From an uncultured Spirochaetota bacterium (GTDB lineage: Bacteria > Spirochaetota > Brevinematia > Brevinematales > JAOACQ01), in NCBI GenBank assembly GCA_963768055.1, contig CAVYGN010000002.1, positions 320,001 to 384,000 of the forward strand: a stretch of DNA of 64,000 nt, given 5' to 3'. Positions 2,597 through 61,676 of the stretch are shown here, one piece after another. Both the position numbers and the translations under genes were made by a program. Position 1 is the first letter of the stretch. Every line of letters starts with the position of its first letter. The notes below the pieces were generated by a model. That model did no database searches. It was not told where the DNA came from and saw only the letters and a program-made list of their open reading frames with translations.

Positions 2597-3670
2597 ATGA
2601 AAAAACTCAGAGCGGGGATCATAGGCGCTACCGGAATGGTTGGACAGCGTTTTGCGACTATCCTCGAAAATCATCCGTGGTTCGATACCGCGCTTCTGGC
2701 GGCAAGCCCGGTGTCGGCCGGCAAACCCTACGCGGAAGCTGTCAGGGGCCGGTGGTCTATGAAAAACCCTATACCGGAAAAGTTATCTCAAATGATTGTC
2801 TATAACGCGTCCGATTGTGAAAAGATCGCCATGGAAGTGGATTTCGTGTTCTGCGCTGTCGATATGCCAAAGGCCGAGGTTTTGAAACTCGAAGAAAGAT
2901 ACGCCAGGCTTGAAATCCCGGTGATCTCCAATAATTCCGCTTCACGGGGCTTTTCGGACGTCCCGATGGTCATACCTGAAATAAATCATGGGCATCTTGC
3001 CGTAATAGAAACCCAGAGGAAACGCCTCAATACGAAAAAGGGCTTCATAGCTGTAAAACCCAACTGCTCAATACAGAGCTACGTCCCGGCAATTCACCCC
3101 CTTCTGGATTACAGGCCTGTAAAAGTGCTTGCCTGCACTTACCAGGCCATTTCCGGGGGCGGTAAAACCTTCAAAAGCTGCCCCGAGATGGTCGATAACG
3201 TAATCCCATTCATAAGCGGCGAGGAGCAGAAAAGCGAAAAAGAACCGCTGAAAATCTGGGGCGAGGTAAGGGACGGAAACGTAGTTAACGCTGCCGGACC
3301 CTTGATCACCTCGCAATGCATCCGCGTCCCTGTTACCGACGGCCACATGGCCGCTGTTTTCGTAGCCTTTGAAAAAAAGCCGCCGCGCGATGAAATACTT
3401 TCAAGATGGAAATCCTTCACCGGCAAACCGCAAAATTTGGGACTTCCGAGCGCCCCGGTCCCTTTCCTGACCTATTTTGAGGAAGAAAACAGGCCTCAGA
3501 CCGCACTCGACAGGGAAATAAACAGGGGCATGGGCATATCCATCGGCAGGCTGAGGGAAGATCCGATCTTCGACTATAAATTTGTCTGCCTATCCCATAA
3601 TACCATTCGCGGAGCAGCAGGAGGAGGGGTCCTCATAGCGGAACTCCTCATGGAGGAAGGGTATCTTTGA
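2597..3670 (+). CDS. asd: aspartate-semialdehyde dehydrogenase
   Basis: GIIGATGMVGQ Rossmann motif, catalytic PNCS, QAISGGG, CIRVPVTDGH, HNTIRGAAGG; start set at ATG 2597 after GGAG. Confidence 0.95.
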   Translation: MKKLRAGIIGATGMVGQRFATILENHPWFDTALLAASPVSAGKPYAEAVRGRWSMKNPIPEKLSQMIVYNASDCEKIAMEVDFVFCAVDMPKAEVLKLEERYARLEIPVISNNSASRGFSDVPMVIPEINHGHLAVIETQRKRLNTKKGFIAVKPNCSIQSYVPAIHPLLDYRPVKVLACTYQAISGGGKTFKSCPEMVDNVIPFISGEEQKSEKEPLKIWGEVRDGNVVNAAGPLITSQCIRVPVTDGHMAAVFVAFEKKPPRDEILSRWKSFTGKPQNLGLPSAPVPFLTYFEEENRPQTALDREINRGMGISIGRLREDPIFDYKFVCLSHNTIRGAAGGGVLIAELLMEEGYL

Positions 3671-9850: not shown

Positions 9851-10237
9851 TTGCTTGAACCAGTGCCTATAAGTGTGCGATTATACTCTCCTTCAAGTAT
9901 TTTCAGCGGAAAAATGCATGCTGTCCTTTTCAGAGGCTGGAAGAACAGGGTGAAGGGCAGGGACTGGTACGATATGGTATTTCTTATAGGGCAGGGTATT
10001 GCTGTCAGTCTTTCGCATCTAAAAGAAAGGCTTGTTCAAACAGTGCACTGGAAACCTGGTGATAATTTCAGTAAAAATGATCTGCTGCAAATGCTAGAAA
10101 AAAGAATTGAGCAGACGGATTTTGACTCTGCAAAAAACGACGTGCTCCCATTCATCAAAGATCCTGATTCTGTGAGAGTCTGGTCGAAAGAGTTTTTTAG
10201 AGGGCTTTTATTGAAACTCAAAACAGTAGATTTATAG
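9851..10237 (+). pseudogene. AbiEii/AbiGii nucleotidyltransferase toxin, C-terminal fragment
   Basis: FSGKMHAVLFRGWKNRVKGRDWYD motif; N-terminal NTase half absent (in-frame TGA at 9830-9832). Confidence 0.8.
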
Positions 10238-10633: not shown

Positions 10634-11310
10634 TCATTCAAAATATTTGAACTCATTAACCAATAAATTATATATTTCTTCTTTAACTATTTTCATTTGT
10701 TCAGATATCTCTTTAAACATTGAAATTAAATCATGGCAGCCATTGATTTCTGCATACTTTTTTATTTGAATTAAACCCGAATCTTTAGTTAAAAAATCAG
10801 GATAGTTAAAATATTTAAAGTATGGTTCATTTTGTAGTCCAATGTTACGTAATATATCACCTTTGCAGTAGTTAATATTCCATTCTTTATATAATATTTT
10901 AATAGTATTAACGAGGTTAATAGCTTGAGATGGAGTTTCCACAATAAAATTATCTAATTCTTTCATCCAAAAGGAATCAGGATTATTGGTACTCAGCGGA
11001 TTATTGACAAAGACTTCTGGAGCTCCATCTACAGGATTATCTTTTTCAAATTTAGTTACAACACATCCATTTTCAGCCAAACCAAAGGCAAAGCATAATG
11101 AATAAAAATATGCTTCTAAATGTTGAAAAATTTCTGGTTGCCAGATATCAAATTGATTTGCCCAAATGGGATATTTCCCATTCAAGGCTTTTGTTATTGC
11201 AAACCAAGAAAATATTTTCTTTGCGGAAATAAAATTATATGCCGAATATCCTTTTTGATCGGGAGTTAAATTAGTACATCTTGATTTATTCATATCAAGA
11301 AAAGCTGTAT
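10634..11310 (-). pseudogene. Type IIG-like R-M gene, 3' segment (putative target-recognition region)
   Basis: Rejoins the middle segment in frame (...VWFRI|DTAFLDMNKSRC...) when the IS3 and one CTAT are removed. Confidence 0.8.
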
Positions 11311-11346
11311 CTATCGGTTTTTGTCAAGGGAGTTGTCGCTTTTATT

Positions 11347-12375
11347 TTACGCCGCAACCAACGATTCCTTGTTAGTCTTACTCGGGTTTAAAAATACCGA
11401 TTCTATCCGTTCCCATTTTTTAGATTCTCCTGACCATCTTTCAGGATGTCTGCTTTTTGCAGCCGCATAAGTTTCCGCTCTCTTCAGGAGTATCGCCTTA
11501 TCTTTACCTTCATGTCTCTGTGCTGGTGTGACATATCCGATCCCTGAATGAAGATGTTTATTATTATACCAGTCTACAAAATTTTGCATCCATATTTCTA
11601 CCGATTCCATTGTCTCGAAATTGCCTGGGTATTTCACATTATATTTCAATGTTTTAAACAATGATTCTGAGTAAGGGTTATCGTTACTTACACTCGGCCT
11701 TGAAAACGACGGCATAACCTGTAACCTCTGCAAGGTCGCTAACATCGTAGCCCCTTTCATAGGAGAACCATTATCAGAATGTAAATACAAGCCTTTCAAA
11801 TCAATGGTTTCTCCGATCTCTGCCACCATTCTTGCGGCATGATCAGAGCTTTCCTCCTCGTGCATTTTCCAGCCGACTATCTTACGGCTCCAGACATCTT
11901 CGATCATATAGAGGTAGAAATACTTACCTTTTATATGACTGGATATATATGTAATATCCCAACTCCATACCTGATTAGGACCCGTCGCTTCCAGTTCTCT
12001 TGGCGTTTTCCTTGCCGTTTTCGGCTTCGTTTCGTATCTATGGTGCAGCAAATCATTGTCCTTTAAAACGCGGTAAAAAGATGATTCTGATGCTATATAC
12101 CGACCTTCCTCTGCCAGCATGGGCACTATTTCATTCGGCGTCATATCTCTAAATCTCTCGCTGCAACAGCAGGAGATGATCTCCTCCCTTTCTTCGGCCG
12201 ACAGGGCATTTGAAGGCATTACATTTCTCAATTTTCTTCTGTCTCCCTCAAGATTTTTATTCCAGCGCTGTATGGTCCTTATATCATAGCCAGATTCTTC
12301 ACAAGCCTTATCCCTGCTGGCCCCTGTCGTAACAGCCTCATTAATCAAGGCACAGATATCTATGCGTATATCCAA
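11347..12375 (-). CDS. IS3-family transposase OrfB (DDE integrase core)
   Basis: WSWDITY, HSDNGS, DNPYSESLFKTLK motifs. Confidence 0.95.
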   Translation of the reverse strand: MDIRIDICALINEAVTTGASRDKACEESGYDIRTIQRWNKNLEGDRRKLRNVMPSNALSAEEREEIISCCCSERFRDMTPNEIVPMLAEEGRYIASESSFYRVLKDNDLLHHRYETKPKTARKTPRELEATGPNQVWSWDITYISSHIKGKYFYLYMIEDVWSRKIVGWKMHEEESSDHAARMVAEIGETIDLKGLYLHSDNGSPMKGATMLATLQRLQVMPSFSRPSVSNDNPYSESLFKTLKYNVKYPGNFETMESVEIWMQNFVDWYNNKHLHSGIGYVTPAQRHEGKDKAILLKRAETYAAAKSRHPERWSGESKKWERIESVFLNPSKTNKESLVAA

Positions 12376-12380
12376 TGGAG

Positions 12381-12863
12381 TTAATCTTCCTCGATCCCGA
12401 ACAGCTTGTTCAGTTTTTTTTTAAGCACCAGCAGAGAAGTAACCTCGGCTATAGTTTTATCCTTACGGTTAATTTCTTTTTCTAACTCTATGATTTTTGC
12501 TTTCAAACCCTTGTTTTCTTCTCTGTATGAGTTATTAGATATCACTGATAAACACTCCTGTTTCCAGAGTTCGATATGAGTCGACTGGAGACCATTTTTT
12601 CTCAACCACTGTCCTAACTCTTCTCCCGATTGGCTTGCTGCGTCTACTACCGCCTGATATTTATCAGATAATTTCCAGCCTCTCGGGCTTCTATCCTGGA
12701 ATCCTCTGGATACATTATTCTGGATCATTTTCCTCCAGTTGTAAAGGGTTTGTTCACATACTCCTATTTCCTGGCTCAGTTCAGATACTGTTTTTCCTCC
12801 TGGCATACACATCTTTTGAACGATAGATTTCCTGAATTCCTCTGAACGAATTTGACTATTCAT
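12381..12863 (-). CDS. IS3-family transposase OrfA (HTH)
   Basis: HTH VSELSQEIGVCEQTLYNW; coiled coil; A9 slippery run near the 3' end. Confidence 0.9.
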   Translation of the reverse strand: MNSQIRSEEFRKSIVQKMCMPGGKTVSELSQEIGVCEQTLYNWRKMIQNNVSRGFQDRSPRGWKLSDKYQAVVDAASQSGEELGQWLRKNGLQSTHIELWKQECLSVISNNSYREENKGLKAKIIELEKEINRKDKTIAEVTSLLVLKKKLNKLFGIEED

Positions 12864-12910
12864 TTTTTGTCTCCTAATATTTTAGGCGACAACTATCCTA
12901 ACACACGGGG

Positions 12911-14117
12911 CTATCCTGAACCAAACAGAATTAATATTATTTATTGAAAATCTTATATTATCTCTTGGATTAATTCTTACAGGTGTACCATCTTCCATTC
13001 CTCCAATAAAATTAGAATTCGTTACCCCATATGTTTTCTTATTATTTCTCCTTTCATCTTTTAACGGTAAACCGCCATAAATCTGTTTGGAATCAATTTC
13101 TTGTTTTGTAGGGTCTCTTTTAAAATCATACATCGCCTGTTTAGACCATATTTTTATAGATGTTCTATTTTGTGAAAAATTAATTATTTTAGATTGTTTT
13201 ATGACTTTTAATATTATTTTGTTAAGTTCTTCGAGTGATAAACCCCAGTTAATTGATAACTCTTTAGCCTCTACATTTGAATAATCATTAATTTTGATGA
13301 TATTACTATTTCCTTTTTCATTAAAATTATAACTCCAAATTGTAAATGAAACCGGGAAATTACCAATATTTTTAAAAAATCCATTGCCATTTACAATAAA
13401 CCCTTTTTCATATTTAAAATGCTTATCAAAAACTTCTCTAAATGCTTTATACGAAGGCCTTGGTATCAACCATGAAGTTGCAGTAAATATTAATAAAATT
13501 GGATTCAAACCCGGATGCTTCTCTAAATATAATTTTGACAGATTTAAAATTTGAGCCAAAAAAGCAGTATATCTTTCATTTCCCGCATCGTTACCTGTAA
13601 GTTCAATTATAGATGGATCTACTTTATAATTTGAATTAGCATTTATTCTTATATTAATATTCTCATCAGTATTTTTATAAGGTGGATTTAACAGGAATGC
13701 CAAAGGCTTATCGAAAGATAAATTTTTTTCTTTCAACTCATTTTCTAAAATTTGAAGATATTCATTTGCGGTTTTATCAATAAAATTCAACCCTTTATTT
13801 TCTGATGTCTTTGGTATTATAGTAAACCCTGCTTGAATATCATCCGGATCATTTTTCATTCTTCTTTCAATCGTTTTTAATAAATCCGGCTGCAATTCAG
13901 AAACTATTTTATGTTTTAAATGTCCTCTCCAGCTTGTTACTAAATTCCCTGATCCGCCTGCAGGATCAAATACTATATATTTGTCTGATAATTTGGTTTC
14001 GTAATAATGATGGACAAACCACAATGCGAATTTGCTTAAATTAATATTTGTAAAAAAAATTCCATTCTGTCTTACGTAATCAGGATTTATTCTATTAATA
14101 ACTTCATCAAATCTACT
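12911..14117 (-). pseudogene. Type IIG-like R-M gene, middle segment (amino-methyltransferase)
   Basis: Motif X GIFFT, motif I VFDPAGGSGNL, motif IV LNPPY (gamma-class order). Confidence 0.85.
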
Positions 14118-14164
14118 AAAATAATGGGAATTACATACTTGACTACCTAATATGAATATTTTGG

Positions 14165-14224
14165 GTTTGTTTGATAATTTTATTAGAGTAAATTAAAAAT
14201 AAGAAAATAAACTCTTTTATATTT
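14165..14224 (+). repeat. block A, 60-bp plus-strand promoter/leader, copy 1
   Basis: Identical to 14630-14689. Confidence 0.9.
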
Positions 14225-14248
14225 ATTAATAAAATAAAGGAATTACTT

Positions 14249-14425
14249 ATGTCTATTAAAAAATTCAAAGAAGGAAAATTAATTAAAGAATATAGCATTC
14301 CTAATAAACGATTAGAATCTATAATTAAAATTTTAGATGAAAATAAAATCAATGTTCTGATGTATAATTGCGATCCTCAAATGAATACGGCAGACCTTAG
14401 AATAGAATTTTTAGAAGAAAATTAA
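14249..14425 (+). CDS. 58-aa hypothetical passenger (pair 1, plus partner; not in ORF track)
   Basis: AAAGGA RBS; MSIKKFKEGKLIKEYSIPNKRLESIIKILDENKINVLMYNCDPQMNTADLRIEFLEEN*; stop overlaps partner stop in TTAA. Confidence 0.6.
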   Translation: MSIKKFKEGKLIKEYSIPNKRLESIIKILDENKINVLMYNCDPQMNTADLRIEFLEEN

Positions 14426-14571
14426 ATCTGTCCTGAACCGCCGCATTTTGGGCATGCTTTTCTTTTGTCGCCACCACAAGAATGACATTCTTTCCCATTA
14501 ATTTTCCCGGTTCCATGACAAACAGGGCAGATAATTGTTTTTGCTCCGTGACAAGTTGGACACATAGCCAT
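14422..14571 (-). CDS. 49-aa DnaJ-type cysteine-rich zinc-finger mini-protein (pair 1, minus partner; not in ORF track)
   Basis: MAMCPTCHGAKTIICPVCHGTGKINGKECHSCGGDKRKACPKCGGSGQI*: four CxxCxG repeats; GGAGG RBS; TTGACA-16-TACACT promoter. Confidence 0.85.
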   Translation of the reverse strand: MAMCPTCHGAKTIICPVCHGTGKINGKECHSCGGDKRKACPKCGGSGQI

Positions 14572-14635
14572 TTTATTCCTCCGCAATAATTAATAGTTAA
14601 GTGTAGTTCGTTTTCGTAAATTGTCAATAGTTTGT
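14564..14635 (-). repeat. block B, 72-bp minus-strand promoter + RBS + start, copy 1
   Basis: Identical to 16814-16885; contains -35 TTGACA (14622-14627), -10 TACACT (14600-14605), GGAGG and ATGGCTAT. Confidence 0.9.
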
Positions 14636-14689
14636 TTGATAATTTTATTAGAGTAAATTAAAAATAAGAAAATAAACTCTTTTATATTT
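14630..14689 (+). repeat. block A, copy 2
   Basis: Identical to 14165-14224; overlaps block B by GTTTGT. Confidence 0.9.
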
Positions 14690-14715
14690 TTAAATAATAT
14701 AAAGGAGTGTATATT

Positions 14716-14889
14716 ATGTTAAACTTTAAAATCGGTGATTCTGTAATGTTAAAATCAGGGGGAGTTACAAGAACAGTCATTAAAATATTGAAAAATGGGT
14801 TTATAAAATGTTCTTATTTAAACCCCAATAAAAGATTCTTTAAAAAAATGATTAATGTTTTTAATCCTTTGGTACTTACTAAAGTTTAA
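14716..14889 (+). CDS. YodC/DUF2158-like small protein (pair 2, plus partner, 57 aa, basic)
   Basis: FKIGDSVMLKSGG...C...F motif; AAGGAG RBS. Confidence 0.8.
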   Translation: MLNFKIGDSVMLKSGGVTRTVIKILKNGFIKCSYLNPNKRFFKKMINVFNPLVLTKV

Positions 14890-14894
14890 TTAAA

Positions 14895-15095
14895 TTAATC
14901 TTTTACCAATTCTATCACATTTGGATTAAAAGTAGCAAATATTGGTTTCTTTGTTGATTCATCTTCTCTTGTACATCTTATATCACCAATATGTACAGCA
15001 AATAGTGGATTATTTTCTGTTACAATGGAATGAACTACCCATTTAGACCCACCACTTTTCATTTTAACAATATCTCCAATATTAAACGTATCCAT
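14895..15095 (-). CDS. YodC/DUF2158-like small protein (pair 2, minus partner, 66 aa)
   Basis: FNIGDIVKMKSGG...C...FNPNVIELV; own TTGACA-18-TACGCT promoter (15147-15152, 15123-15128). Confidence 0.8.
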   Translation of the reverse strand: MDTFNIGDIVKMKSGGSKWVVHSIVTENNPLFAVHIGDIRCTREDESTKKPIFATFNPNVIELVKD

Positions 15096-15293
15096 TTTAT
15101 TCTTCCCAATAGTTATTGGTTAAGCGTACCATTTATTTAATAAAATTGTCAATATTACGAATACACAAATCAAAAAAATTGATTTAAAATTATTCTTATC
15201 TTATTGTAATCAAAGGAGTTCTGCGCCTATACCCCTCATTTTATAAAGTAGTCAAAATATGTTATAATATATGTGCTGAAAGGGAGAAAAGGC

Positions 15294-16215
15294 ATGAAAA
15301 ACACGGCGATCAGCACGTATGAGTTTTTGAAAAGTTTTCCCGATGAAAAGTCTGCGAGGATTTATTTAGAGAAGGAACGCTGGAATGGTAAAATAACTTG
15401 TCCTTTCTGTGGAAATAAAGATCGTATTCAGGTAAGGAAAGAAGAAGGCTATTTTCGTTGTTTGGCTTGCAAAAAGGATTTCACTGTCCGTACAGGGACT
15501 ATTTTTGAAAGGTCTCATGTTCCTCTTGATAAATGGCTTTACGCAATGTACCTTGTCGTAACCGACCGTAAAGGAATTTCATCATTGGAACTATCAAAGG
15601 TTATTGGGATTACTCAAAAGTCAGCCTGGTTTTTATTACAGCGTTTACATGAAGCATGCAAAGGCGAGAACACTATCCTTTCCGGCATAATCGAAGCCGA
15701 TGAAACGTATATCGGCGGCAAAGAGAAAAACAAACATTCTAATAAAAAAGCGAGAGCCGGACGTGGTGCAGTTGGAAAGACGGCAGTATTAGGCATGAAA
15801 GAAAGGAATGGAGACGTAAAAGCAATTGCAATTCCTAATACGGAAGCTTCGACTATTCAAGATATTATCAGAGAAACAGTCGTTCCAGGTTCAATGCTTT
15901 TTACAGATGAACATCGGTCGTATAATGGTATGACGGAATATACACATCTTTCAGTCAATCATAGTGCGAAGGAATTTGTAAACGGCATGGCTCACACAAA
16001 CGGTATTGAAAGCGTATGGGCTGTGTTGAAGCGTGGATATTACGGCACATTCCATCATTTTTCAGTCAAGCATCTTCAAAGATATGTTGACGAGTTTTCA
16101 TTTCAGGTTGAATGAAGGCAAATGTAAGATTAAATCTATAGATCGTATTAATGCTTTATTCACTAAAACTGTCGGTGTTCACATGACGTATAAAGAATTG
16201 AAGGATATACATTAA
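15294..16215 (+). pseudogene. IS1595-family transposase with a +1 frameshift near the 3' end (~16101-16104)
   Basis: Zn ribbon CPFCG...CLAC, HTH, EADETY/FTDE/TNGIES DDE residues; the EFSF|RLNEG...MTYKEL tail continues in another frame to stop 16215. Confidence 0.9.
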
Positions 16216-16219
16216 TTCT

Positions 16220-16252
16220 AACTCCTTTATATTTAGTAATAATAAAGGAGTT
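16220..16252 (+). promoter_or_regulatory. RBS-sequestering hairpin
   Basis: Perfect 11-bp stem AACTCCTTTAT/ATAAAGGAGTT containing the AAGGAG of the 16258 ORF. Confidence 0.7.
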
Positions 16253-16257
16253 TATCT

Positions 16258-16482
16258 ATGCGAAAATGTAGAATTGTAAAAAATTTAGACAATCAGAAAT
16301 TTTATCCAGAAGTGTTTACAGATTATTTTGGTTATGATGACTGGCTAAATTTTGAAGATGAAAAACAAGGTTCAGGGTCAATAGCATCATTTGACACTCT
16401 TAAAGAAGCAGAAGATTTTTGTAATAAATTTATTAAGCATTCTCAAGCAGATAAAATAGAATCTCAAAAAGAATTAAACTAA
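16258..16482 (+). CDS. 74-aa hypothetical passenger (pair 3, plus partner)
   Basis: Strong RBS; SFDTLKEAEDFC motif; 9-nt overlap with convergent partner. Confidence 0.7.
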   Translation: MRKCRIVKNLDNQKFYPEVFTDYFGYDDWLNFEDEKQGSGSIASFDTLKEAEDFCNKFIKHSQADKIESQKELN

Positions 16483-16821
16483 TTTTTTAGGGACATCATA
16501 ATCATTATCAAGTTCTGTCGAGGCTTTTGCAAGATCAAAATAATCACTTAAATGGTTTATTAACATTTCAATAAATCTTCCATGATAAACACCATAAGTT
16601 TCTCTTTCTAATTCCTCATCTTTTCTTTTTAGAATTCCAAAATTTATTTGTTTATCAAGTAAATACGGTTTTAACCATGCTTTATTTTCCCAATTATCAG
16701 CGATATGTGTAAAATCACCAGCCTTGTCTGGTTTCCATGTTCTTATTTTGTTACTTTCAATAAGTTCATTGATTTTTTCTAAAAAACCTCTTGGATTATT
16801 TGTCTGGATATAAATAGCCAT
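16474..16821 (-). CDS. 115-aa hypothetical passenger (pair 3, minus partner)
   Basis: Starts MAIYIQT inside block B; TW...GDFTH...W..KAW and YGVYHGRFIEML segments. Confidence 0.8.
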   Translation of the reverse strand: MAIYIQTNNPRGFLEKINELIESNKIRTWKPDKAGDFTHIADNWENKAWLKPYLLDKQINFGILKRKDEELERETYGVYHGRFIEMLINHLSDYFDLAKASTELDNDYDVPKKLV

Positions 16822-16885
16822 TTTATTCCTCCGCAATAATTAATAGTTAAGTGTAGTTCGTTTTCGTAAATTGTCAATAGTTTGT
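16814..16885 (-). repeat. block B, copy 2
   Basis: Identical to 14564-14635. Confidence 0.9.
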
Positions 16886-16937
16886 ATTCTAAAGTTTTTG
16901 TTATATAATATTGGAAATAGGATAATGGAGGCAAAAT

Positions 16938-17432
16938 ATGTTTTGTCCTAAATGTGGAAAAGAAAACGTTGACACGGCGGCTTTCTGTATCGCTTGTGGA
17001 AACAAAATTAGCCAAGACAATTCTACTGTTCAAGAGAAGGTTGAAGTCCAGGAGAAACCTACTAAGGTAAAATTACCAGGATTAATTCTCGCATTTGTTT
17101 TGGGACTAATCGCATTTTTAACACAAATAATAAGTATAATATTCCTTGTAATTATGGAAAATTGGAAAGTAATTTCATTTACTAATACAATTAAAGAGGC
17201 AGTGAATAATAGTTTATTGATATTTGGGGTTATATTGGTAATATTAGCCATTATAGTAATTGTTTTTAGTATCATTGGTCTGGTTTTGGGTAGTAAAGCA
17301 TTAAAAACTTTTAAATTGAATCCAACACAATATCAAGGTAAGGGTTATGCAACGGCGGGAAAAGTTTTTTGTATTCTTAGTCTTGCAATATATATTATTC
17401 CAATAATTATTCTTATTTGGTTATTATTTTAA
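16938..17432 (+). CDS. zinc-ribbon membrane protein (DUF4190-like C-terminus)
   Basis: CPKCG...CIACG; three hydrophobic helices; LGSKALK...GKGYATAG motif. Confidence 0.75.
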   Translation: MFCPKCGKENVDTAAFCIACGNKISQDNSTVQEKVEVQEKPTKVKLPGLILAFVLGLIAFLTQIISIIFLVIMENWKVISFTNTIKEAVNNSLLIFGVILVILAIIVIVFSIIGLVLGSKALKTFKLNPTQYQGKGYATAGKVFCILSLAIYIIPIIILIWLLF

Positions 17433-17472
17433 TCGGACATATTTACAGACAATAAATAAGAAGGTTAAATAA

Positions 17473-17598
17473 ATGAAGAAACAAATTAAACCAAAAGAAA
17501 GTAAGAATAAAGGCAAGAAATATGAAAAGCCGTTATCACTCTATTCAATAGGAATGAAGAAGGTTTTAAATATAGTGCTAAAGAAGAATAAAGCTTGA
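17473..17598 (+). CDS. 41-aa lysine-rich small ORF (not in ORF track)
   Basis: AAGG RBS; MKKQIKPKESKNKGKKYEKPLSLYSIGMKKVLNIVLKKNKA*. Confidence 0.5.
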   Translation: MKKQIKPKESKNKGKKYEKPLSLYSIGMKKVLNIVLKKNKA

Positions 17599-17637
17599 TT
17601 CCTCTTTATATTTAGGTAAAAACCGGAGGATTCAATT

Positions 17638-18255
17638 ATGAATACTTTTGAAGCATTTCAAATAACATTATTTTTAATTCCAGGATTTCTATCATCAATT
17701 ATATTAAATGCACTTATTGTCCAAAAGGAGAAAAATAAATTTAATCTTATTATTGAAGCTTTGATTTTTTCATTGTTTATATATCTTCCATTAGCTATTT
17801 TAAATCAAAGTAATCCATTAATAATAGATTCCCAATTTAAGATAAGTTATAATGCGGTATCAATGATTTTTCTTGTTATTTTTAGTTTGATTTATCCTAT
17901 GGTTTTATCTTTTCTAATTAATAATGATGAGTTATTAAAATTTGCCAGAAAAATTCATATAACTAAAAGAACTTCAAGAGAATCTGTATGGTATGATGTA
18001 TTTTATGATCATAATAATTTGATTGTCGTAAATTTTTTAGATGGACGAAGGCTTTGTGGATATCCATTACATTATTCTGATAATCCAGAACATCCCTATT
18101 TATATCTAAAAAAACCTGCTTGGATTACTACAAATGAAAATAAAGAACTAAAATATTTAGGAATCGATCAAGATGATGGTATATTGATAACTCCAGAACA
18201 AAAAATAACCTATATTGAATTTTTAAATATACCAAAAGAAAAACTGATAGGGTAA
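17638..18255 (+). CDS. DUF6338-like membrane protein (pair 4, plus partner)
   Basis: LIPGF N-terminal TM motif, three TMs, then SVWYDVF...DGRRLCG...YL Sm-like soluble region. Confidence 0.7.
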   Translation: MNTFEAFQITLFLIPGFLSSIILNALIVQKEKNKFNLIIEALIFSLFIYLPLAILNQSNPLIIDSQFKISYNAVSMIFLVIFSLIYPMVLSFLINNDELLKFARKIHITKRTSRESVWYDVFYDHNNLIVVNFLDGRRLCGYPLHYSDNPEHPYLYLKKPAWITTNENKELKYLGIDQDDGILITPEQKITYIEFLNIPKEKLIG

Positions 18256-18256
18256 A

Positions 18257-18490
18257 TTAATTATCTTTTTTAGTTGTTTCAGTTGATGTTGTTGTAACGA
18301 TAGGAGCCGCAATTGGTGGAGTTAAATTATTATAAAATTCCGTTGCATTTAATTTATTAAATAATGCTTCAGGATTTTTTGATAAATTATTATCTATTGA
18401 AGCAGTCTTTGATTTTTTGGCGATATTCTCTAAATCGTTTTTAGATTCTTTGAGATATTTTATTAAATCTTCTGGTTTATTATCAGGCAT
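18257..18490 (-). CDS. 77-aa hypothetical passenger with Thr-rich tail (pair 4, minus partner)
   Basis: GGGAG RBS; own TTGACA-18-TACACT promoter (18531-18536, 18507-18512). Confidence 0.7.
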   Translation of the reverse strand: MPDNKPEDLIKYLKESKNDLENIAKKSKTASIDNNLSKNPEALFNKLNATEFYNNLTPPIAAPIVTTTSTETTKKDN

Positions 18491-18536
18491 ATTAAACTCC
18501 CGAAATAGTGTATCATATTTATATTTGTGATGTCAA

Positions 18537-18586
18537 ATGAAATTAAAAGGCAAAGATGATGTTAGGTAGTTAAGTATGTAATTCCC
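18537..18586. repeat. internal copy of the transposon right end
   Basis: 48/50 identical to 19111-19160, includes a TIR with one mismatch (18562-18586). Confidence 0.9.
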
Positions 18587-18677
18587 ATTTGTAAATAATA
18601 TAAAGGAGTATGTATTATGAAAAATTCTATGGTTTCAGTCATAACGACTGATCATGATTTTTTAATGGAGGAATATC

Positions 18678-18848
18678 ATGGCAACAACTTTTAAAAAGGG
18701 TGATAAAGCTAAACTTAATTCTGGAAGTCCTGTTTATACTATAACACGAATTAGAAAAGATGGACTTGTTGATTATTATTGGATTGGTAATGATGGGAAA
18801 AAACAAAAAAGTTTTGCTCCGTCTGCTTGTTTAACTAAGATTGAGTAA
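18678..18848 (+). CDS. YodC/DUF2158-like small protein (pair 5, plus partner, 56 aa, basic; not in ORF track)
   Basis: MATTFKKGDKAKLNSGSPVYTITRIRKDGLVDYYWIGNDGKKQKSFAPSACLTKIE*; GGAGG RBS; preceded by a 25-aa ORF at 18617-18694. Confidence 0.8.
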   Translation: MATTFKKGDKAKLNSGSPVYTITRIRKDGLVDYYWIGNDGKKQKSFAPSACLTKIE

Positions 18849-19065
18849 CAAGCATTACTTCTTCTGGTCCATAAAAATTTAATTCATCTTTATTGGAAGA
18901 AGAATCATACCATTTACAAATTAAATCTCCATGAGAACGGTGTCTTAATAAAGCTTGCATGTTATAAGGTCCTTCATTGGTTCCATCATAGATACAGACA
19001 ATAACCATGTCAGGACCACCACTTTTTAATCTAACAACATCACCGACTTTAAATTTTTCAGCCAT
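18835..19065 (-). CDS. YodC/DUF2158 family protein (pair 5, minus partner, 76 aa)
   Basis: FKVGDVVRLKSGGPDMVI...CKWYD canonical signature; AGGAGG RBS; extended -10 TGcTACAAT. Confidence 0.9.
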   Translation of the reverse strand: MAEKFKVGDVVRLKSGGPDMVIVCIYDGTNEGPYNMQALLRHRSHGDLICKWYDSSSNKDELNFYGPEEVMLVTQS

Positions 19066-19160
19066 TTTAATCTTTTCCTCCTTTTTATATTTCATTGTAG
19101 CATAATTTGGATGAAATTAAAAAGCAAAGATGATGTTAGGTAGTCAAGTATGTAATTCCC

Positions 19161-19979
19161 AAAATAATCATCAATAGTTAATCCTGCATTTGGATTAGTA
19201 TAAATATAATGTTGTTCAACAAATTTTCTAAACTCATATTGATTTTTTGAAGCTAATAAAAATCTTTCACTATTTTTTCTTCCACCTTGGCAACTTACCC
19301 ATACTTCATCAGGTTTATTCTCTGCTGGTTCGGCTACAACACTAGTAATATCCCAATAAGAAACAATAGCATAGAAGCAATGAATTGCTGCCATAGGCTC
19401 TTCAAAATACTCTTTAAGCATTTCAATTTTATTTATAAAATTTTGAGGATCGATTTGTAGTCTAGTTGAATCTAAGTTCTTCAAATGTTCAACAAATTCT
19501 TCTAATTTACGGTCAATAAATAGTGAATGAATTTCATCTTTGTTAATAACTAATATTGCATAATCAAGCAATTCTTTCTTTTCAGTACTTTTTAATTTAT
19601 TTGAATTAATATGGCCGATTTCACTTGGTGATTTATTCGGATCAGAATTTGTTACAATTTCAAAAATATAATTAGGTAAATTAGATATTTTCCATAAACC
19701 AATAAAATTATGAGAAATTATACAAATACTGGAAAATGTTAGTCCTTTTTTATTGTAATGATATGCTTGAAAAAATCCTGATAGCCAATCATCTTCTTTA
19801 GTTTTTAATTCAACAATTAAACGTCCTTTTATATAAATATCGGCACCATGTGCTTCTGATTCTTTTAGAAAATCTTTTGAACTGAATATATTTTTAAACA
19901 AAGGAAATATAAGATAATCATCAGCTTTTTCAGAATGAGAACTTGTTAAATATTTGTATAATTGTTTAAGCTCTTTCAT
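19161..19979 (-). pseudogene. Type IIG-like R-M gene, 5' segment (PD-(D/E)xK-like nuclease)
   Basis: ADIYIKGRLIVELKT...QAYHY nuclease-like motif; rejoins in frame (...TIDDYF|SRFDEVI...). Confidence 0.8.
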
Positions 19980-20081
19980 ACAAATGCCACCTGAATATCC
20001 TGCCAAGATAGTAAATTATCTAATCCCATCAATAATTATAACAGATTTATTTGTTTTATAAAAGAGTCATTTTGAAGCTCT

Positions 20082-20967: not shown

Positions 20968-21018
20968 TCTTCCCCGTGTGTTAGGATAGTTGTCGCCTAA
21001 AATATTAGGAGACAAAAA

Positions 21019-21501
21019 ATGAATAGTCAAATTCGTTCAGAGGAATTCAGGAAATCTATCGTTCAAAAGATGTGTATGCCAGGAGGAAAAACAGTATCTG
21101 AACTGAGCCAGGAAATAGGAGTATGTGAACAAACCCTTTACAACTGGAGGAAAATGATCCAGAATAATGTATCCAGAGGATTCCAGGATAGAAGCCCGAG
21201 AGGCTGGAAATTATCTGATAAATATCAGGCGGTAGTAGACGCAGCAAGCCAATCGGGAGAAGAGTTAGGACAGTGGTTGAGAAAAAATGGTCTCCAGTCG
21301 ACTCATATCGAACTCTGGAAACAGGAGTGTTTATCAGTGATATCTAATAACTCATACAGAGAAGAAAACAAGGGTTTGAAAGCAAAAATCATAGAGTTAG
21401 AAAAAGAAATTAACCGTAAGGATAAAACTATAGCCGAGGTTACTTCTCTGCTGGTGCTTAAAAAAAAACTGAACAAGCTGTTCGGGATCGAGGAAGATTA
21501 A
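21019..21501 (+). CDS. IS3-family transposase OrfA
   Basis: Same translation as 12381-12863; A9 at 21460-21468 opens the -1 frame into OrfB. Confidence 0.9.
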   Translation: MNSQIRSEEFRKSIVQKMCMPGGKTVSELSQEIGVCEQTLYNWRKMIQNNVSRGFQDRSPRGWKLSDKYQAVVDAASQSGEELGQWLRKNGLQSTHIELWKQECLSVISNNSYREENKGLKAKIIELEKEINRKDKTIAEVTSLLVLKKKLNKLFGIEED

Positions 21502-21506
21502 CTCCA

Positions 21507-22535
21507 TTGGATATACGCATAGATATCTGTGCCTTGATTAATGAGGCTGTTACGACAGGGGCCAGCAGGGATAAGGCTTGTGAAGAATCTGGCTATGATA
21601 TAAGGACCATACAGCGCTGGAATAAAAATCTTGAGGGAGACAGAAGAAAATTGAGAAATGTAATGCCTTCAAATGCCCTGTCGGCCGAAGAAAGGGAGGA
21701 GATCATCTCCTGCTGTTGCAGCGAGAGATTTAGAGATATGACGCCGAATGAAATAGTGCCCATGCTGGCAGAGGAAGGTCGGTATATAGCATCAGAATCA
21801 TCTTTTTACCGCGTTTTAAAGGACAATGATTTGCTGCACCATAGATACGAAACGAAGCCGAAAACGGCAAGGAAAACGCCAAGAGAACTGGAAGCGACGG
21901 GTCCTAATCAGGTATGGAGTTGGGATATTACATATATATCCAGTCATATAAAAGGTAAGTATTTCTACCTCTATATGATCGAAGATGTCTGGAGCCGTAA
22001 GATAGTCGGCTGGAAAATGCACGAGGAGGAAAGCTCTGATCATGCCGCAAGAATGGTGGCAGAGATCGGAGAAACCATTGATTTGAAAGGCTTGTATTTA
22101 CATTCTGATAATGGTTCTCCTATGAAAGGGGCTACGATGTTAGCGACCTTGCAGAGGTTACAGGTTATGCCGTCGTTTTCAAGGCCGAGTGTAAGTAACG
22201 ATAACCCTTACTCAGAATCATTGTTTAAAACATTGAAATATAATGTGAAATACCCAGGCAATTTCGAGACAATGGAATCGGTAGAAATATGGATGCAAAA
22301 TTTTGTAGACTGGTATAATAATAAACATCTTCATTCAGGGATCGGATATGTCACACCAGCACAGAGACATGAAGGTAAAGATAAGGCGATACTCCTGAAG
22401 AGAGCGGAAACTTATGCGGCTGCAAAAAGCAGACATCCTGAAAGATGGTCAGGAGAATCTAAAAAATGGGAACGGATAGAATCGGTATTTTTAAACCCGA
22501 GTAAGACTAACAAGGAATCGTTGGTTGCGGCGTAA
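21507..22535 (+). CDS. IS3-family transposase OrfB
   Basis: Same translation as 11347-12375; DDE motifs. Confidence 0.95.
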   Translation: MDIRIDICALINEAVTTGASRDKACEESGYDIRTIQRWNKNLEGDRRKLRNVMPSNALSAEEREEIISCCCSERFRDMTPNEIVPMLAEEGRYIASESSFYRVLKDNDLLHHRYETKPKTARKTPRELEATGPNQVWSWDITYISSHIKGKYFYLYMIEDVWSRKIVGWKMHEEESSDHAARMVAEIGETIDLKGLYLHSDNGSPMKGATMLATLQRLQVMPSFSRPSVSNDNPYSESLFKTLKYNVKYPGNFETMESVEIWMQNFVDWYNNKHLHSGIGYVTPAQRHEGKDKAILLKRAETYAAAKSRHPERWSGESKKWERIESVFLNPSKTNKESLVAA

Positions 22536-22567
22536 AATAAAAGCGACAACTCCCTTGACAAAAACCG

Positions 22568-23333
22568 TCTTGTTAATAGTTTCAAGGTCAATAACTTCTT
22601 TGAATTTCGCTTGAAATATTGTTTTAGTAGAATTTGGATCTTCCAAATCAAGTTTTATTATACCTATTCCAAATGATGATGAGAGTCTTTCAAGTTCATT
22701 TGTAAAATTTTCATCATCAAGTATATCAGCAGCAACCAGATAACCTTCATTTGCCCATGAAGAATTAGATACTGCTTGAAAAAATGATTCCCTAAGATTA
22801 TTAAAATTCAAAGATATTTTTAATTCATACGAATATAACTTTATGGGCGAAATATTTAATTCTTTAGTTAAATTTATTACTTCTGGTAACCAATTGGGGT
22901 AATAAACGCCAACAATATCAGGATGTGCCCATTGACCAAATGTTTTTTTAGTTGATTCTTCGTGATAAATTGTTTTTGTATAAATATCTTGAAAGGCATA
23001 AACATAATAAGAGAGAAATTTATGTAAATCTTTTTCTTTAAGTTTTTTAATTTCATCTGATTCTTCTATTTTTATTTCTTTTGATTTTATTTGGTTAGAT
23101 AAAGATTTTAGATAAAATTTTGTTGGCCGTTCTTCTGCCTTGTAAAATTTAGAATTCTTATTATCTTTCAGGTCTAAATATAACAAAGCTGCCATTGTCT
23201 GCCATGGAGTTTTTCCTGATGAATTTAATTGTTTATCATAATTCATTTCTTTACCAATTTTCCAAATTTCCATTTTTGTTAATGGCCTTTTTGTGTCATT
23301 AAGAACTTTCTCGGCAAAATCAAGAAAATTCAT
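22568..23333 (-). pseudogene. HARE-HTH + restriction-endonuclease-like (COG2958/HrgA-like) gene, 5' part
   Basis: GKTPWQTMAALLYLD HARE-HTH motif; HPDIVG...SYELK...FFQAVSNSSWANEGYLVA. Confidence 0.85.
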
Positions 23334-56930: not shown

Positions 56931-58670
56931 TTATTTTCCAGTAAACTTATCGTAATACACATCAGTAGGTTCAGAGGGAAGAGCAGCGCCGCTTTTCTCG
57001 GCCTCATCCAGCTTTTTAACTTTTGCCGGATCATACCACCAGTAGCATATGATTTCGCTGTCTACATAGAAAACTCCTGCGAAGGTTCCATACTTCGAGA
57101 CATAGGTTTTAGGGTGGCCGAAAACGTTTTTATAGAACACCATGTCAAAGTTCGGCCGCCAGAAAAGTATCCATGGGACGTCGGAGTATATTATCGAATC
57201 TATCCGCCTGATTATTTTTGTTCTTTCACCCGTGTCAAAAATAGACGGAAGGGAGTCTATAAGCGCATCGACCCTGGGATTTTTATATCCGGGATAGTTG
57301 TTCCCGTTGAGTTCATCCGCATGCCGCGAGTGCCACAACTGCTCGGGATCTTCAAAAACCACGCCTGAAAATCCCATCCTGACCGCGTCGAACTTGTATT
57401 CGTCCATCCTTTTTGTCATAGTTGCAACCGATGTAAGGTCGAGATCGACCTTTACTCCCGCCTCTTTGCAGGACTGGGCGTATATCGTAAGATATTTTTC
57501 AATATCCTCGTTTATAACTGAAAGTATAGAAAATTCCAGCCTTTCACCCCGGCTGTTTACAAGATAGCCGTCCTTGTCGAGCTTATTGTACCCTGCTTCC
57601 GCAAGAAGTTTCTTGGCCCCTTCAGGATCGTACAGTACGGCGGGATTTTGGCTTATATCCGGGAAATATGAATTAAGCGGCTCAGCCATGCCGTAAAGCA
57701 GCTTGTCGATAATGGTTTTCCTGTCCAGGAGCATAAAAAGGGCCTTCCGGACCCTGACATCCCTGAAAACAGGTTTTCTTATATTAAGAGCCAGTCCGAC
57801 GAAAATTTTCGGCTTATGGTTGTATATCTTCTGTTTTACTATCCAGTTTTTTACGAATTTATCCGAACCGGTCTCGGTTACCCAGTGTCTCGGGGTCAAC
57901 TGATTATTACCGGAAAAAATGTCGAAATCGCCTTTTTTGAATGCCTCGAAGGCCACATCGTTTTCTCTGATGACTTTAAAGATTATTTTATCGAAATTGA
58001 ACATATGGGCCCTGTTGGGAAGAACATCCGCCCAGTAATCCTTTCTTCGCGTCAGGACATAACCCCTCCCGTCCTTTACATCCGTAAGGGCGTAAGGGCC
58101 GCTTGACCCGGGAAGCTCCATGTTGAAGCTTTTATTAAAATCCTTTCCTTGGTAAAGGTGCCTGGGCAATATATTCATTCCTGCAAGGGTTACGAAATTA
58201 AGGTAATTTACGTTTTTCGACTTAAACCGGATAGTATTTTTACCTGTAATTACCGGTTCGTCAAAGCGTATGAAAAAGAGCCTCTGGACCGATGTAAGGT
58301 TATGGGGATCCATTATAACATCATAGGTAAAACTGACGTCTTCCGCCGTTATGGGCTGTCCGTCGGACCACTTTGCCCTCGGATCGATCGTGAAGGTAAA
58401 GGTCTTTTTATCGGGCGATATATTCCAGGAATCCGCTATCAACGGCTCGAATTCAAGGGTATCGGGATTCAGGTCCAGCAAGGAATCGTAAATAAGCTGC
58501 GTCACCTGGTCGACATCGACTTCGTTGTTAATAAAAGAATTGAACGATTCGGGAAACTCCGGCGTATGCAGTGTGAGAACTCCTCCCCTGACCGCAGCCG
58601 GATCGCCCCCTTCGGCCCACAATGAAACCGCCAGGATAAACGGTATTATCGATATTAAAATTTTTTTCAC
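56931..58670 (-). CDS. peptide ABC substrate-binding protein (family 5, YejA-like), copy 2
   Basis: AKWSDGQPITAEDV signature; GTG start at 58670 after GGAGG. Confidence 0.9.
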   Translation of the reverse strand: MKKILISIIPFILAVSLWAEGGDPAAVRGGVLTLHTPEFPESFNSFINNEVDVDQVTQLIYDSLLDLNPDTLEFEPLIADSWNISPDKKTFTFTIDPRAKWSDGQPITAEDVSFTYDVIMDPHNLTSVQRLFFIRFDEPVITGKNTIRFKSKNVNYLNFVTLAGMNILPRHLYQGKDFNKSFNMELPGSSGPYALTDVKDGRGYVLTRRKDYWADVLPNRAHMFNFDKIIFKVIRENDVAFEAFKKGDFDIFSGNNQLTPRHWVTETGSDKFVKNWIVKQKIYNHKPKIFVGLALNIRKPVFRDVRVRKALFMLLDRKTIIDKLLYGMAEPLNSYFPDISQNPAVLYDPEGAKKLLAEAGYNKLDKDGYLVNSRGERLEFSILSVINEDIEKYLTIYAQSCKEAGVKVDLDLTSVATMTKRMDEYKFDAVRMGFSGVVFEDPEQLWHSRHADELNGNNYPGYKNPRVDALIDSLPSIFDTGERTKIIRRIDSIIYSDVPWILFWRPNFDMVFYKNVFGHPKTYVSKYGTFAGVFYVDSEIICYWWYDPAKVKKLDEAEKSGAALPSEPTDVYYDKFTGK

Positions 58671-58712
58671 GGCCAAATTTCCTCCCCGAGATGTTATTAT
58701 ATAATTATACAC

Positions 58713-58807
58713 TGTCATTTCGAGCGTAGCGAGAAATCTTCCTTTCGAGCATAACGTTTATCCTGCCCAGGGGAAGATTTCTCGTCACTACGCTCCTCGA
58801 AATGACA
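58713..58807. repeat. REP-like palindrome between the tandem binding-protein genes
   Basis: TGTCATTTCGAGCGTAGCGAGAAATCTT...AAGATTTCTCGTCACTACGCTCCTCGAAATGACA. Confidence 0.75.
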
Positions 58808-58808
58808 T

Positions 58809-60685: not shown

Positions 60686-61676
60686 CTATTTGTTGGTGGA
60701 AGCCGCAGAAGAGGTACTCGTGGAATTCGTTGTACTCGTTGGAGCCGGATTCATATTAGTCGAGTTATTAATATTCATCCTCTTTTTCTCCTGCTGATAG
60801 AGGTAGAGATCTTCCGAGAACTTCTTGTTCTCAATATCCATTCTATACTTGGTCCTTGCGGTGATAATTCCCCATACCTGCTCGTCCTTGATATCCTGGG
60901 TGACCTCGTCGTCGATTATATACGGGGTATATTCCATTTCAACAGACTTTATATATGTGACAAAATCTCCGCCAAGCTGGTCGGACGGCCTGTAAACGAC
61001 TATCGAGTCCACGGAATAATAAGGAATATCGAAGGGATAAAGCGGTTCCCTTGAAAGTGTCTTGGATGAAACTCTCTCGGTAAAATTCGGGTTTTCGAAT
61101 ACGAGTTTCCTCCATCCGTCGAAAAACAGCCATCCGAAAAAATACTCATGAATATTATCAAAGCGGTCTTTCAAGCGTATTGCCAGCCCCATGCCGGTAA
61201 TTTCTCCCGTTTACCCATATAGAAAGGCTTTTTATCTCCGAGACGTTAGGCATAACGCCGTTTTCCGCATTGGCGAACTGGCCGTTTGTATCGTAGATCT
61301 TTACCGGGAACGGGGGTTTTATAATCGCGTAGCTGTTGTTGTTCCAGCTCGGGAAATGCACCCTTACGCCCAGGGTGGTGGCAAACCGCTGGCTGACTAC
61401 CGGTTTGCAGTAGCTGTTGATCCTGTTATTTATCATGTCGGCTGATTCATTCATTTCCACTTTCCAGTTCTCGAGCATGTAATCCTTATATCCAATGACG
61501 ACTTTGGGAAAGCCGTCGACATTAGTTATATAACTTTCAGCTGGAACCGGAAATTCTGCTTTAATATTATCATCGTATTTCGAGAAATCGATGAGGGTTC
61601 TTGTAATAACAGCGCTTGAAGTAGCCATACAAAAAAATAAAAAAATAACACCGTATATGGCTGATTTTGTTTTCAT
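60686..61676 (-). CDS. flaA: periplasmic flagellar filament sheath protein FlaA, split by a +1 frameshift at 61187-61190
   Basis: LGVRVHFPSWNNNSYAIIKPPF, IKSLSIWVNGRNY, LFFDGWRKL.FENP motifs; two ORFs join as NGRNYRH|GLAIRLKD. Confidence 0.85.

Follow-up and report, generated by a model that had tools for sequence, protein, structure and literature searches.

Introduction

Near-identical upstream regions standing before non-homologous genes have been catalogued as putative mobile promoters (PMPs), and the survey describes more than 4,000 families of them, mostly pairs, some identical over 100 bp (PMC3575422). According to the same survey, some cases are associated with insertion sequences (IS), and the mechanism is left open there (Matus-Garcia, Nijveen and van Passel 2012, PMC3575422). 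In T4-type phages, promoter/stem-loop cassettes (PeSL) are described as lying between small genes of unknown function, which recombination between the cassette copies is proposed to shuffle, with mini-circles detected (Arbiol et al. 2010, PMC2839356). The present study concerns 64,000 nucleotides of DNA from an uncultured Spirochaetota bacterium (assembly GCA_963768055.1, contig CAVYGN010000002.1, positions 320,001 to 384,000; the whole stretch is hereafter the window), in which two blocks of sequence, A and B, each occur as exact repeats that precede small genes unrelated to one another, within the cargo of a transposon. We consider the region best filed as promoter reuse in the cargo of a transposon disrupting a methyltransferase-like gene.

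Comeau et al. in 2014 are said to have treated the PeSL regulatory cassettes of T4-type phages, and IS1595-family elements with passenger genes were reportedly the subject of Siguier, Gagnevin and Chandler in 2009. For a member of the IS1595 family, the generation of AT-rich 8-bp duplications has been described (PMC12561309).

Results

Repeat blocks A and B

The two copies of block B (Table 1; all positions are those of the window) were identical at 72 of 72 positions, and the two copies of block A, 14165-14224 and 14630-14689, at 60 of 60. When up to 3 mismatches were allowed, block B matched the 64-kb window twice, and at least two matches were obtained with 0 of 100 shuffles; a repeat search with a seed of 12 and a minimum of 30 nt likewise returned two copies of A and two of B. 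The alignment of the A copies could be extended to 14241/14706, ending in AAAGGA, at 74 of 77 positions (96%). The stretch 14564-14689 consisted of B followed by A, the two overlapping by the hexamer GTTTGT at 14630-14635, while the lone copy of A began, and the lone copy of B ended, with that same hexamer. The initial annotation of the window had reported both exact repeats, their overlap and the shared hexamer at the edges of the lone copies, and all of these were confirmed by the coordinates.

Each block began 6-8 nt before a -35 hexamer and reached the Shine-Dalgarno (SD) sequence or the start codon, so placed that A covered about -84/-86 to -25/-27 and B -64 to +8 relative to the start codon. 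On the minus strand, B carried TTGACA-16-TACACT, GGAGG and ATGGCTAT, and agreed with the promoter consensus at 10 of 12 positions; A carried a promoter-like TTGATA-18-AAAAAT. By these features, A and B would both function as active promoters. Only 8 nt, with GTTTGT among them, separated the -35 hexamers of the B|A spacer. Blocks A and B are best explained as the halves of one very compact spacer that holds divergent promoters and 5′ untranslated regions (5′ UTRs).

The genes behind the blocks were not related to each other, as the initial annotation had proposed. Identity between the B copies stopped in codon 3 of a 49-aa Zn-finger open reading frame (ORF), b1 (14422-14571), and of a 115-aa ORF, b3 (16474-16821). 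The A copies led to a 58-aa ORF, a1 (start 14249), and a 57-aa ORF, a2 (start 14716), and their perfect identity ended within a hairpin loop of the 5′ UTR, 25-27 nt upstream of where the ORFs start. All-against-all BLASTP of the encoded proteins gave a best a1-a2 match at E 0.055 over 19 residues and no match between b1 and b3, and no DNA similarity was found between the paired copies outside the blocks.

The junction of B had been described as a fusion inside codon 3. Identity does stop there, but this wording overstates the precision for B, because ATGGCTAT is normal for the b3 family and the relative of the Zn-finger protein also begins with Met-Ala. Relatives of b3 could be aligned from residue 1 at 73 of 80 loci, where 64 of the 73 started with ATGGC and 9 of the 73 with exactly ATGGCTAT. 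The only relative found for b1 (P0082, 77% identical, on a 9,083-bp contig) had the Met-Ala start. The true joint of B may consequently lie anywhere from the SD to codon 3.

Families of 5′ regions

By sequence comparison, A and B belong to two local families of 5′ regions. The minus-strand cargo genes had in common a B-type 5′ region with TTGACA...TAC(A/G)CT, GGAGG and AAAATGG. One further member, B′, was identical to B at 53 of 74 positions (72%) and kept the -35 neighbourhood, TAC(A/G)CTTAAC and GGA(G/A)GAATAAAATGG, and another, B″, was 55% identical to B and kept the hexamers. The plus-strand genes a1, a2 and a3, together with a short ORF at 18617, had in common an A-type tail, which was 85.7% identical over 35 positions between 14210-14244 and 16220-16252 and 90.9% identical between 14686-14718 and 18587-18619. 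The B|A spacer occurred as a full copy only once, and the remaining spacers were diverged or different.

In the predicted folds of the A-type tail, the SD is paired with a segment upstream of it, CUCUUUU/CUCCUUU. The resulting hairpin of a2 reached -12.8 kcal/mol (z -3.45) and that of a3 -14.3 kcal/mol (z -3.72), and for each of them 0 of 200 shuffles were equally stable. The hairpin of a1 reached -4.5 kcal/mol (z -0.28), a stability equalled by 72 of 200 shuffles, and this weakness fits A being foreign to a1.

The transposon carrier

The A and B copies were enclosed by an element of 5,035 bp (14126-19160), the ends of which (14126-14150 and 19160-19136) were inverted and identical at 25 of 25 positions. 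The element was flanked by an AT-rich target duplication of 8 bp, AAAATAAT. Its transposase gene matched the Pfam families DDE_Tnp_IS1595 (PF12762) at 2.2e-43 and the zinc ribbon PF12760 at 1.1e-10, and encoded 273-275 aa, compared with 304-312 aa in intact relatives, the best of which was 77-78% identical. By its sequence features, the carrier is consistent with a passenger-gene transposon of the IS1595 type. The possibility that the transposase gene forms a discrete IS of 1 kb was considered and rejected, as convincing inverted repeats or a duplication were not found around it. The initial annotation had stated that no tyrosine or serine recombinase is present, which held for all 64 ORFs, but it had overlooked the DDE transposases of the IS1595 and IS3 families.

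A third copy of the right-end repeat lay inside the element, at 18537-18586, and suggests that two related elements may have become nested and then moved jointly via one outer end each. This internal copy sat exactly within an A-type 5′ UTR. The sequence that had been called block C is a terminal repeat of the transposon and not a promoter element. The idea that the methyltransferase-like gene naturally starts in block C was rejected, since relatives of that gene have about 277 preceding residues, which were found at 19152-19976.

The split host gene and IS3 insertions

In a profile-free search, the methyltransferase-like ORF of 380 aa found relatives about 920 aa long, with which it aligned only beyond about their residue 278. 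When five of these relatives were compared with the window by tblastn, they returned one gene in three colinear minus-strand pieces, with residues of about 11-290 at 19976-19152, 278-699 at 14147-12906 and 700-922 at 11305-10637. The ORFs of 219, 380 and 304 aa (10634-20006, minus strand) are thus fragments of a single gene of about 910 aa, which belongs to an unnamed family and whose relatives have 922 and 933 aa. In silico excision of the element with one copy of AAAATAAT, and of the first of two IS3-family copies with 4 nt (CTAT), restored an ORF of 910 codons with no internal stop, and residues 11-909 of the restored product aligned to residues 11-922 of one relative (P0084) at 49% identity. 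The translation contained DPAGGSGN and NPPY, which we take to be adenine-methyltransferase-type motifs; searches of Pfam and of the Protein Data Bank (PDB) sequences with the relatives of about 920 aa returned nothing.

The second IS3-family copy cut the 3′ end of a HARE-HTH gene (22568-23333), and its excision added 40 codons past 20971. We rejected the view that the IS3 copies bound a composite transposon or an inverted segment. Each copy had its own 4-bp duplication and the ORFs were restored by simple excision, and the history of the region therefore comprises three simple insertions.

Cargo genes and searches for further copies

The cargo formed an array of convergent small-gene pairs, with about a dozen genes flanking the transposase gene (Table 1). 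In a terminator scan of 13900-19300, two sites were found, neither of them in A, in B or between convergent genes. The convergent partners overlapped or lay almost end to end. With overlapping 3′ ends and no terminator-like site between them, the transcript of each convergent partner should run antisense through the other, and the two may interfere with each other. The b1 product was a DnaJ-type Zn-finger by Pfam, and four cargo genes were DUF2158-like, matching phrog_3261 of unknown function; the PHROGs search returned only unknown-function families for the cargo. PADLOC gave no match for 11 cargo proteins or for the host-gene pieces, and Rfam gave none at E ≤ 1 in 14000-19300.

The 115-aa b3 protein belonged to a strongly conserved family of about 110 aa that occurs sporadically in many phyla (81 matches, the best non-self match being 52% identical), with 18 invariant columns among 36 sequences and no Pfam name. 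Its predicted structure was confident (pLDDT 94.5), and the model had no fold match in the PDB at E ≤ 0.001. Searches of the 80 loci holding b3 relatives for 16 other proteins of the low-GC island in which the element lies returned none of them, and a3/b3 is therefore not a conserved pair.

The exact 72-mer of B had 0 matches in 185,579 species genomes, a set in which the window's own genome is not included. A blastn search with 14100-14720 gave no match in the plasmid collection and, among phages, only a 55-nt, AT-rich match at 80% identity in two records of one Enterococcus phage. The whole element was unmatched in the phage collection (50,697 records) and in the plasmid collection. Within the 80 loci with b3 relatives (825,585 bases), the B|A spacer, A and the terminal repeat had 0 matches. 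At a few of 79 such loci (e.g., L008, L017, L040 and L044) the region upstream of the b3 relative was repeated nearby, with repeats of 82-88% identity over 83-89 nt at 3340-3486 and 4350-4438 of L008 and at 102-186 and 2850-2940 of L017, and the upstream repeat of L017 held a long palindrome. These repeats were local ones, unrelated in sequence to A and B.

The wider window

The GC content of the window was 43.5-45.6%, and its genes included those for IF-2, NusA, RimP, DnaE and FlaA, as in a bacterial chromosome, probably that of a spirochaete. A low-GC island extended over roughly 9.4-23.5 kb. At its edge lay a 5′-truncated fragment of an AbiEii-type nucleotidyltransferase toxin gene (9851-10237, profile positions 150-268 of 270), the sole PADLOC match among 17 proteins. 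The flaA gene (60686-61676, minus strand), for the outer-layer protein of the flagellar filament, was split into two overlapping ORFs covering profile positions 30-135 and 135-227, which could reflect a frameshift, a pseudogene or a sequencing error. Tandem paralogous genes for family-5 solute-binding proteins (56931-60560, minus strand) gave rise to direct repeats of 73-76% identity at a spacing of 1,884 bp.

Table 1. Positions in the window of the repeat blocks, transposon parts, cargo genes, host-gene pieces and IS3 copies.
Feature	Position	Strand	Remarks
Block A, copy 1 (A1)	14165..14241	+	60 nt exact to 14224; promoter-like sequence and 5′ UTR; leads to a1
Block A, copy 2 (A2)	14630..14706	+	Leads to a2; 3′ part is a 13-bp SD-pairing hairpin
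Block B, copy 1 (B1)	14564..14635	-	TTGACA-16-TACACT, GGAGG, ATGGCTAT; precedes 49-aa Zn-finger b1
Block B, copy 2 (B2)	16814..16885	-	Precedes 115-aa b3; probably the native copy; adjoined by another putative promoter
B′	15088..15160	-	Diverged third member of B family; precedes 66-aa DUF2158-like b2
B″	18483..18536	-	TTGACA-18-TACACT with TG; more distant; precedes 77-aa ORF
A-type tail	16220..16252	+	Before 74-aa ORF a3; homologous to 14210-14244
A-type tail	18587-18629		Outer flank of internal transposon-end copy
Left terminal inverted repeat	14126..14153	+	First 25 nt same as right end
Right terminal inverted repeat	19110..19160	-	
Internal third copy of right-end repeat	18537..18586	-	48/50 identical; outer flank is an A-type tail
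Target duplication, left copy	14118..14125		AAAATAAT
Target duplication, right copy	19161..19168		AAAATAAT
IS1595-family transposase gene	15288..16215	+	ORFs 15288-16115 and 16033-16215; frameshift near 3′ end
Convergent pair a1/b1	14249-14425 / 14422-14571	+ / -	4-nt overlap, 14422-14425
Convergent pair a2/b2	14716-14889 / 14895-15095	+ / -	Both DUF2158-like
Convergent pair a3/b3	16258-16482 / 16474-16821	+ / -	9-nt overlap, 16474-16482
Remaining cargo, extent	16938..19095		164 aa (+), 205 aa (+), 77 aa (-), 56 aa (+), 86 aa (-)
164-aa Zn-ribbon/DUF4190 gene and 205-aa DUF6338 gene	16938-18255	+	
77-aa gene with B″	18257-18536	-	
56-aa gene and 86-aa gene	18678-19095	+ / -	Convergent; DUF2158-like; 14-nt overlap, 18835-18848
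Host gene, N-terminal piece	19169..20006	-	About residues 1-290
Host gene, middle piece	12911..14125	-	About residues 278-699
Host gene, C-terminal piece	10634..11314	-	About residues 700-922
IS3-family copy 1	11315..12910	-	1,596 bp; 4-bp duplication CTAT; within methyltransferase-like gene
IS3-family copy 2	20972..22567	+	Inverted, 100% identical to copy 1; duplication TCTT; within HARE-HTH gene

Discussion

Comparison with known systems

Blocks A and B resemble PMPs in that 72/72 and 60/60 exceed an identity of at least 80% over at least 50 nt, the criterion for such promoters, and in that the ORFs downstream are not paralogous. They differ in position, as fewer than 50 nt of either block fall within the -150 to -50 window that the survey describes (PMC3575422). 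With this gene-proximal position, the published PMP screen would have missed both A and B. The blocks further differ from PMPs by including the SD and, for B, the start codon, by standing back to back in divergent orientation, and by lying in transposon cargo.

The likeness to PeSL is a sigma-70-like promoter within a repeated cassette, as far as a match to the consensus (10/12 for B, 9/12 for A) can indicate one. The stem-loop here is an AT-rich, SD-pairing 5′-UTR hairpin and not a terminator, the cassette is bidirectional, and the context is a bacterial chromosome, with genes for IF-2, NusA and DnaE in the window and the element unmatched among the phage records. By analogy, PeSL would be a fair description of how shuffling might work at this locus, and not a group to which the locus belongs.

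With IS1595-family elements the carrier has in common a DDE transposase with a zinc ribbon, terminal inverted repeats and an AT-rich 8-bp duplication, and it differs from them in its length of 5 kb, its cargo of about a dozen genes, the frameshift in the transposase gene and the extra internal copy of an end. Integron cassettes, to which the initial annotation had likened the blocks, are comparable as arrays of small, mostly unknown genes with repeated short sequences between them. This resemblance did not extend further. There was no intI, the only recombination domains in the 23 ORFs of the island and the 41 other ORFs of the window being rve (IS3) and DDE_Tnp_IS1595, and no attC-like single-stranded DNA fold was found in the B|A spacer (z -0.01 on the plus and -0.66 on the minus strand), in A alone (-0.34) or in B alone (+0.23). 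The genes here are arranged in convergent pairs with their own promoter-like regions at their 5′ ends, whereas integron cassettes are co-oriented and mostly promoterless.

Probable promoter reuse by copying

The explanation that we favour, to which we give slightly better than an even chance, is that whole 5′ regulatory units were recently copied, by general recombination within the transposon cargo, from one member to another of two older local families. Both of the letter-perfect pairs probably arose when paralogous 5′ regions underwent ordinary homologous recombination or gene conversion. If promoter units were copied, the limits of identity are accounted for, namely the start codon in one case and the UTR loop in the other, with the gap between the -35 boxes at the far side. 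The claim of the initial annotation that ORFs are swapped behind fixed platforms is in this respect partly upheld, as whole 5′ expression regions have been reused.

A direction of copying can be proposed for each block. As 64 of the 73 b3-family relatives start with ATGGC, the coding end of B is at home in b3, and the 115-aa gene was probably the source from which b1 received its copy of B. For A, the 5′ arm pairs well with the SD region of a2 and poorly with that of a1, which suggests copying from A2 to A1. If both directions are correct, both promoters of the a1/b1 pair would be borrowed copies.

Several points weigh against this explanation. The history is read from one sequence, with no sibling element found and the recombination event itself not seen. 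The 72% identity between B and B′ is low for starting RecA-driven conversion, so that B could just as well have been copied from a sibling array that was not seen. Both copy boundaries fall in the same 8-nt gap, which a random process would not often give, although selection for an intact promoter could. A and B are predicted promoters, and that of A matches the consensus weakly (9 of 12). The transposase gene is only putatively linked to the ends of the element, being frameshifted, distinct in GC content (38.7%, against 26-27.5% in the cargo) and situated 1.1 kb and 2.9 kb from those ends. A related IS with comparable ends was not found, the IS of an Entomospira plasmid included, and the nearest annotated relative of the transposase (45% identity) had no clear ends.

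Alternative explanations

Direct repeats of 60-72 nt are sufficient for homologous recombination, and the locus could have been shaped by modular shuffling in the manner of PeSL. The B|A spacer would then be a portable cassette, and homologous recombination at the A and B copies would let sibling arrays trade whole gene-pair units, including the looping out and re-insertion of small circles of 465 bp (between the A copies) and 2,250 bp (between the B copies). The a1/b1 unit is bracketed by the seemingly borrowed copies A1 and B1, and the third transposon end at 18537-18586 shows past growth of the element through nesting or fusion. We regard modular shuffling as possible but rather unlikely, given that the searches revealed neither a sibling array nor other ORFs behind the blocks, with the 72-mer of B in none of the 185,579 species genomes and the whole element unmatched in phage and plasmid collections, and that the full B|A spacer is single while the other spacers are diverged or different.

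A bolder form of this idea, which we hold to be unlikely, is that the B|A spacer is a portable bidirectional cassette for both expression and recombination, by which IS1595-type transposons gather and shuffle convergent pairs of orphan genes. In that case two places would be preferred for breakage, the gap between the -35 boxes and the loop of the hairpin that pairs the SD. Within about 15 nt of the 5′ arm of that hairpin lie three breakpoints, namely the end of A1/A2 identity, the outer flank of the internal transposon end (18587) and the point at 16220 where homology starts.

The initial annotation had placed the joining of modules at or near GTTTGT, and site-specific cassette joining at this hexamer by a dedicated enzyme, either integron-like or the transposase acting on internal sites, would account for a lone A that starts and a lone B that ends with GTTTGT and for the hexamer shared in the B|A spacer. 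All three plus-strand copies of GTTTGT in the element are block edges. On both strands together the element holds 6 copies against 3.5 ± 1.8 in shuffles, which is no enrichment, and the hexamer is missing at the B′ and B″ junctions and unlike the terminal repeats of the element. No tyrosine or serine recombinase was found by Pfam in the 23 + 41 ORFs, and the B|A spacer lacks an attC-like fold. In effect, site-specific joining rests on two breakpoints 6 nt apart. Beyond its own -35 box, the A copy continues for 6 nt and the B copy for 8 nt; both edges are within the gap between the -35 boxes, and the sharing of GTTTGT therefore reflects two copy boundaries 6 nt apart. We do not regard GTTTGT as a recombination site, and we consider site-specific joining very improbable. 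As far as two events can tell, selection for keeping one promoter whole may be enough to place the boundaries there.

Selection has also to be considered in another role, in which the blocks would be old paralogous promoters held identical by a shared operator or regulon, without recent copying. The -35 regions do form an imperfect palindrome around GTTTGT, a possible operator, and the 5′ regions do form families. Selection would not have kept 72 of 72 and 60 of 60 positions, promoter spacers included, while B′ drifted to 72%, and we see very little likelihood in it. Least probable of all is an assembly artefact in which the assembler made or collapsed the repeats, for which nothing specific speaks beyond a region rich in repeats and IS, since the blocks are shorter than ordinary reads, the source contig has 1,888,111 bp, two identical IS copies of 1.6 kb were told apart in the assembly, each with its own target duplication, the ORFs beside the blocks are unbroken and excision restores the reading frame of the host gene.

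Significance

If the copying of 5′ regulatory units is the correct explanation, the locus would provide a clean, well-bounded case of promoter reuse, in which complete 5′ units were copied before unrelated orphan genes. The copying would also be placed within the history of the mobile elements, a transposon having inserted into a methyltransferase-like gene and IS3 insertions having followed. For annotation, the ORFs of 304, 380 and 219 aa can be treated as one broken gene and block C as a transposon end. If the bolder reading of a portable expression-and-recombination cassette were true, small transposons would possess a built-in means to assemble and reshuffle individually expressed small genes. 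Such a means would have a bearing on the origin of orphan-gene arrays in mobile DNA, and would represent a bacterial-transposon counterpart of the PeSL of phages.

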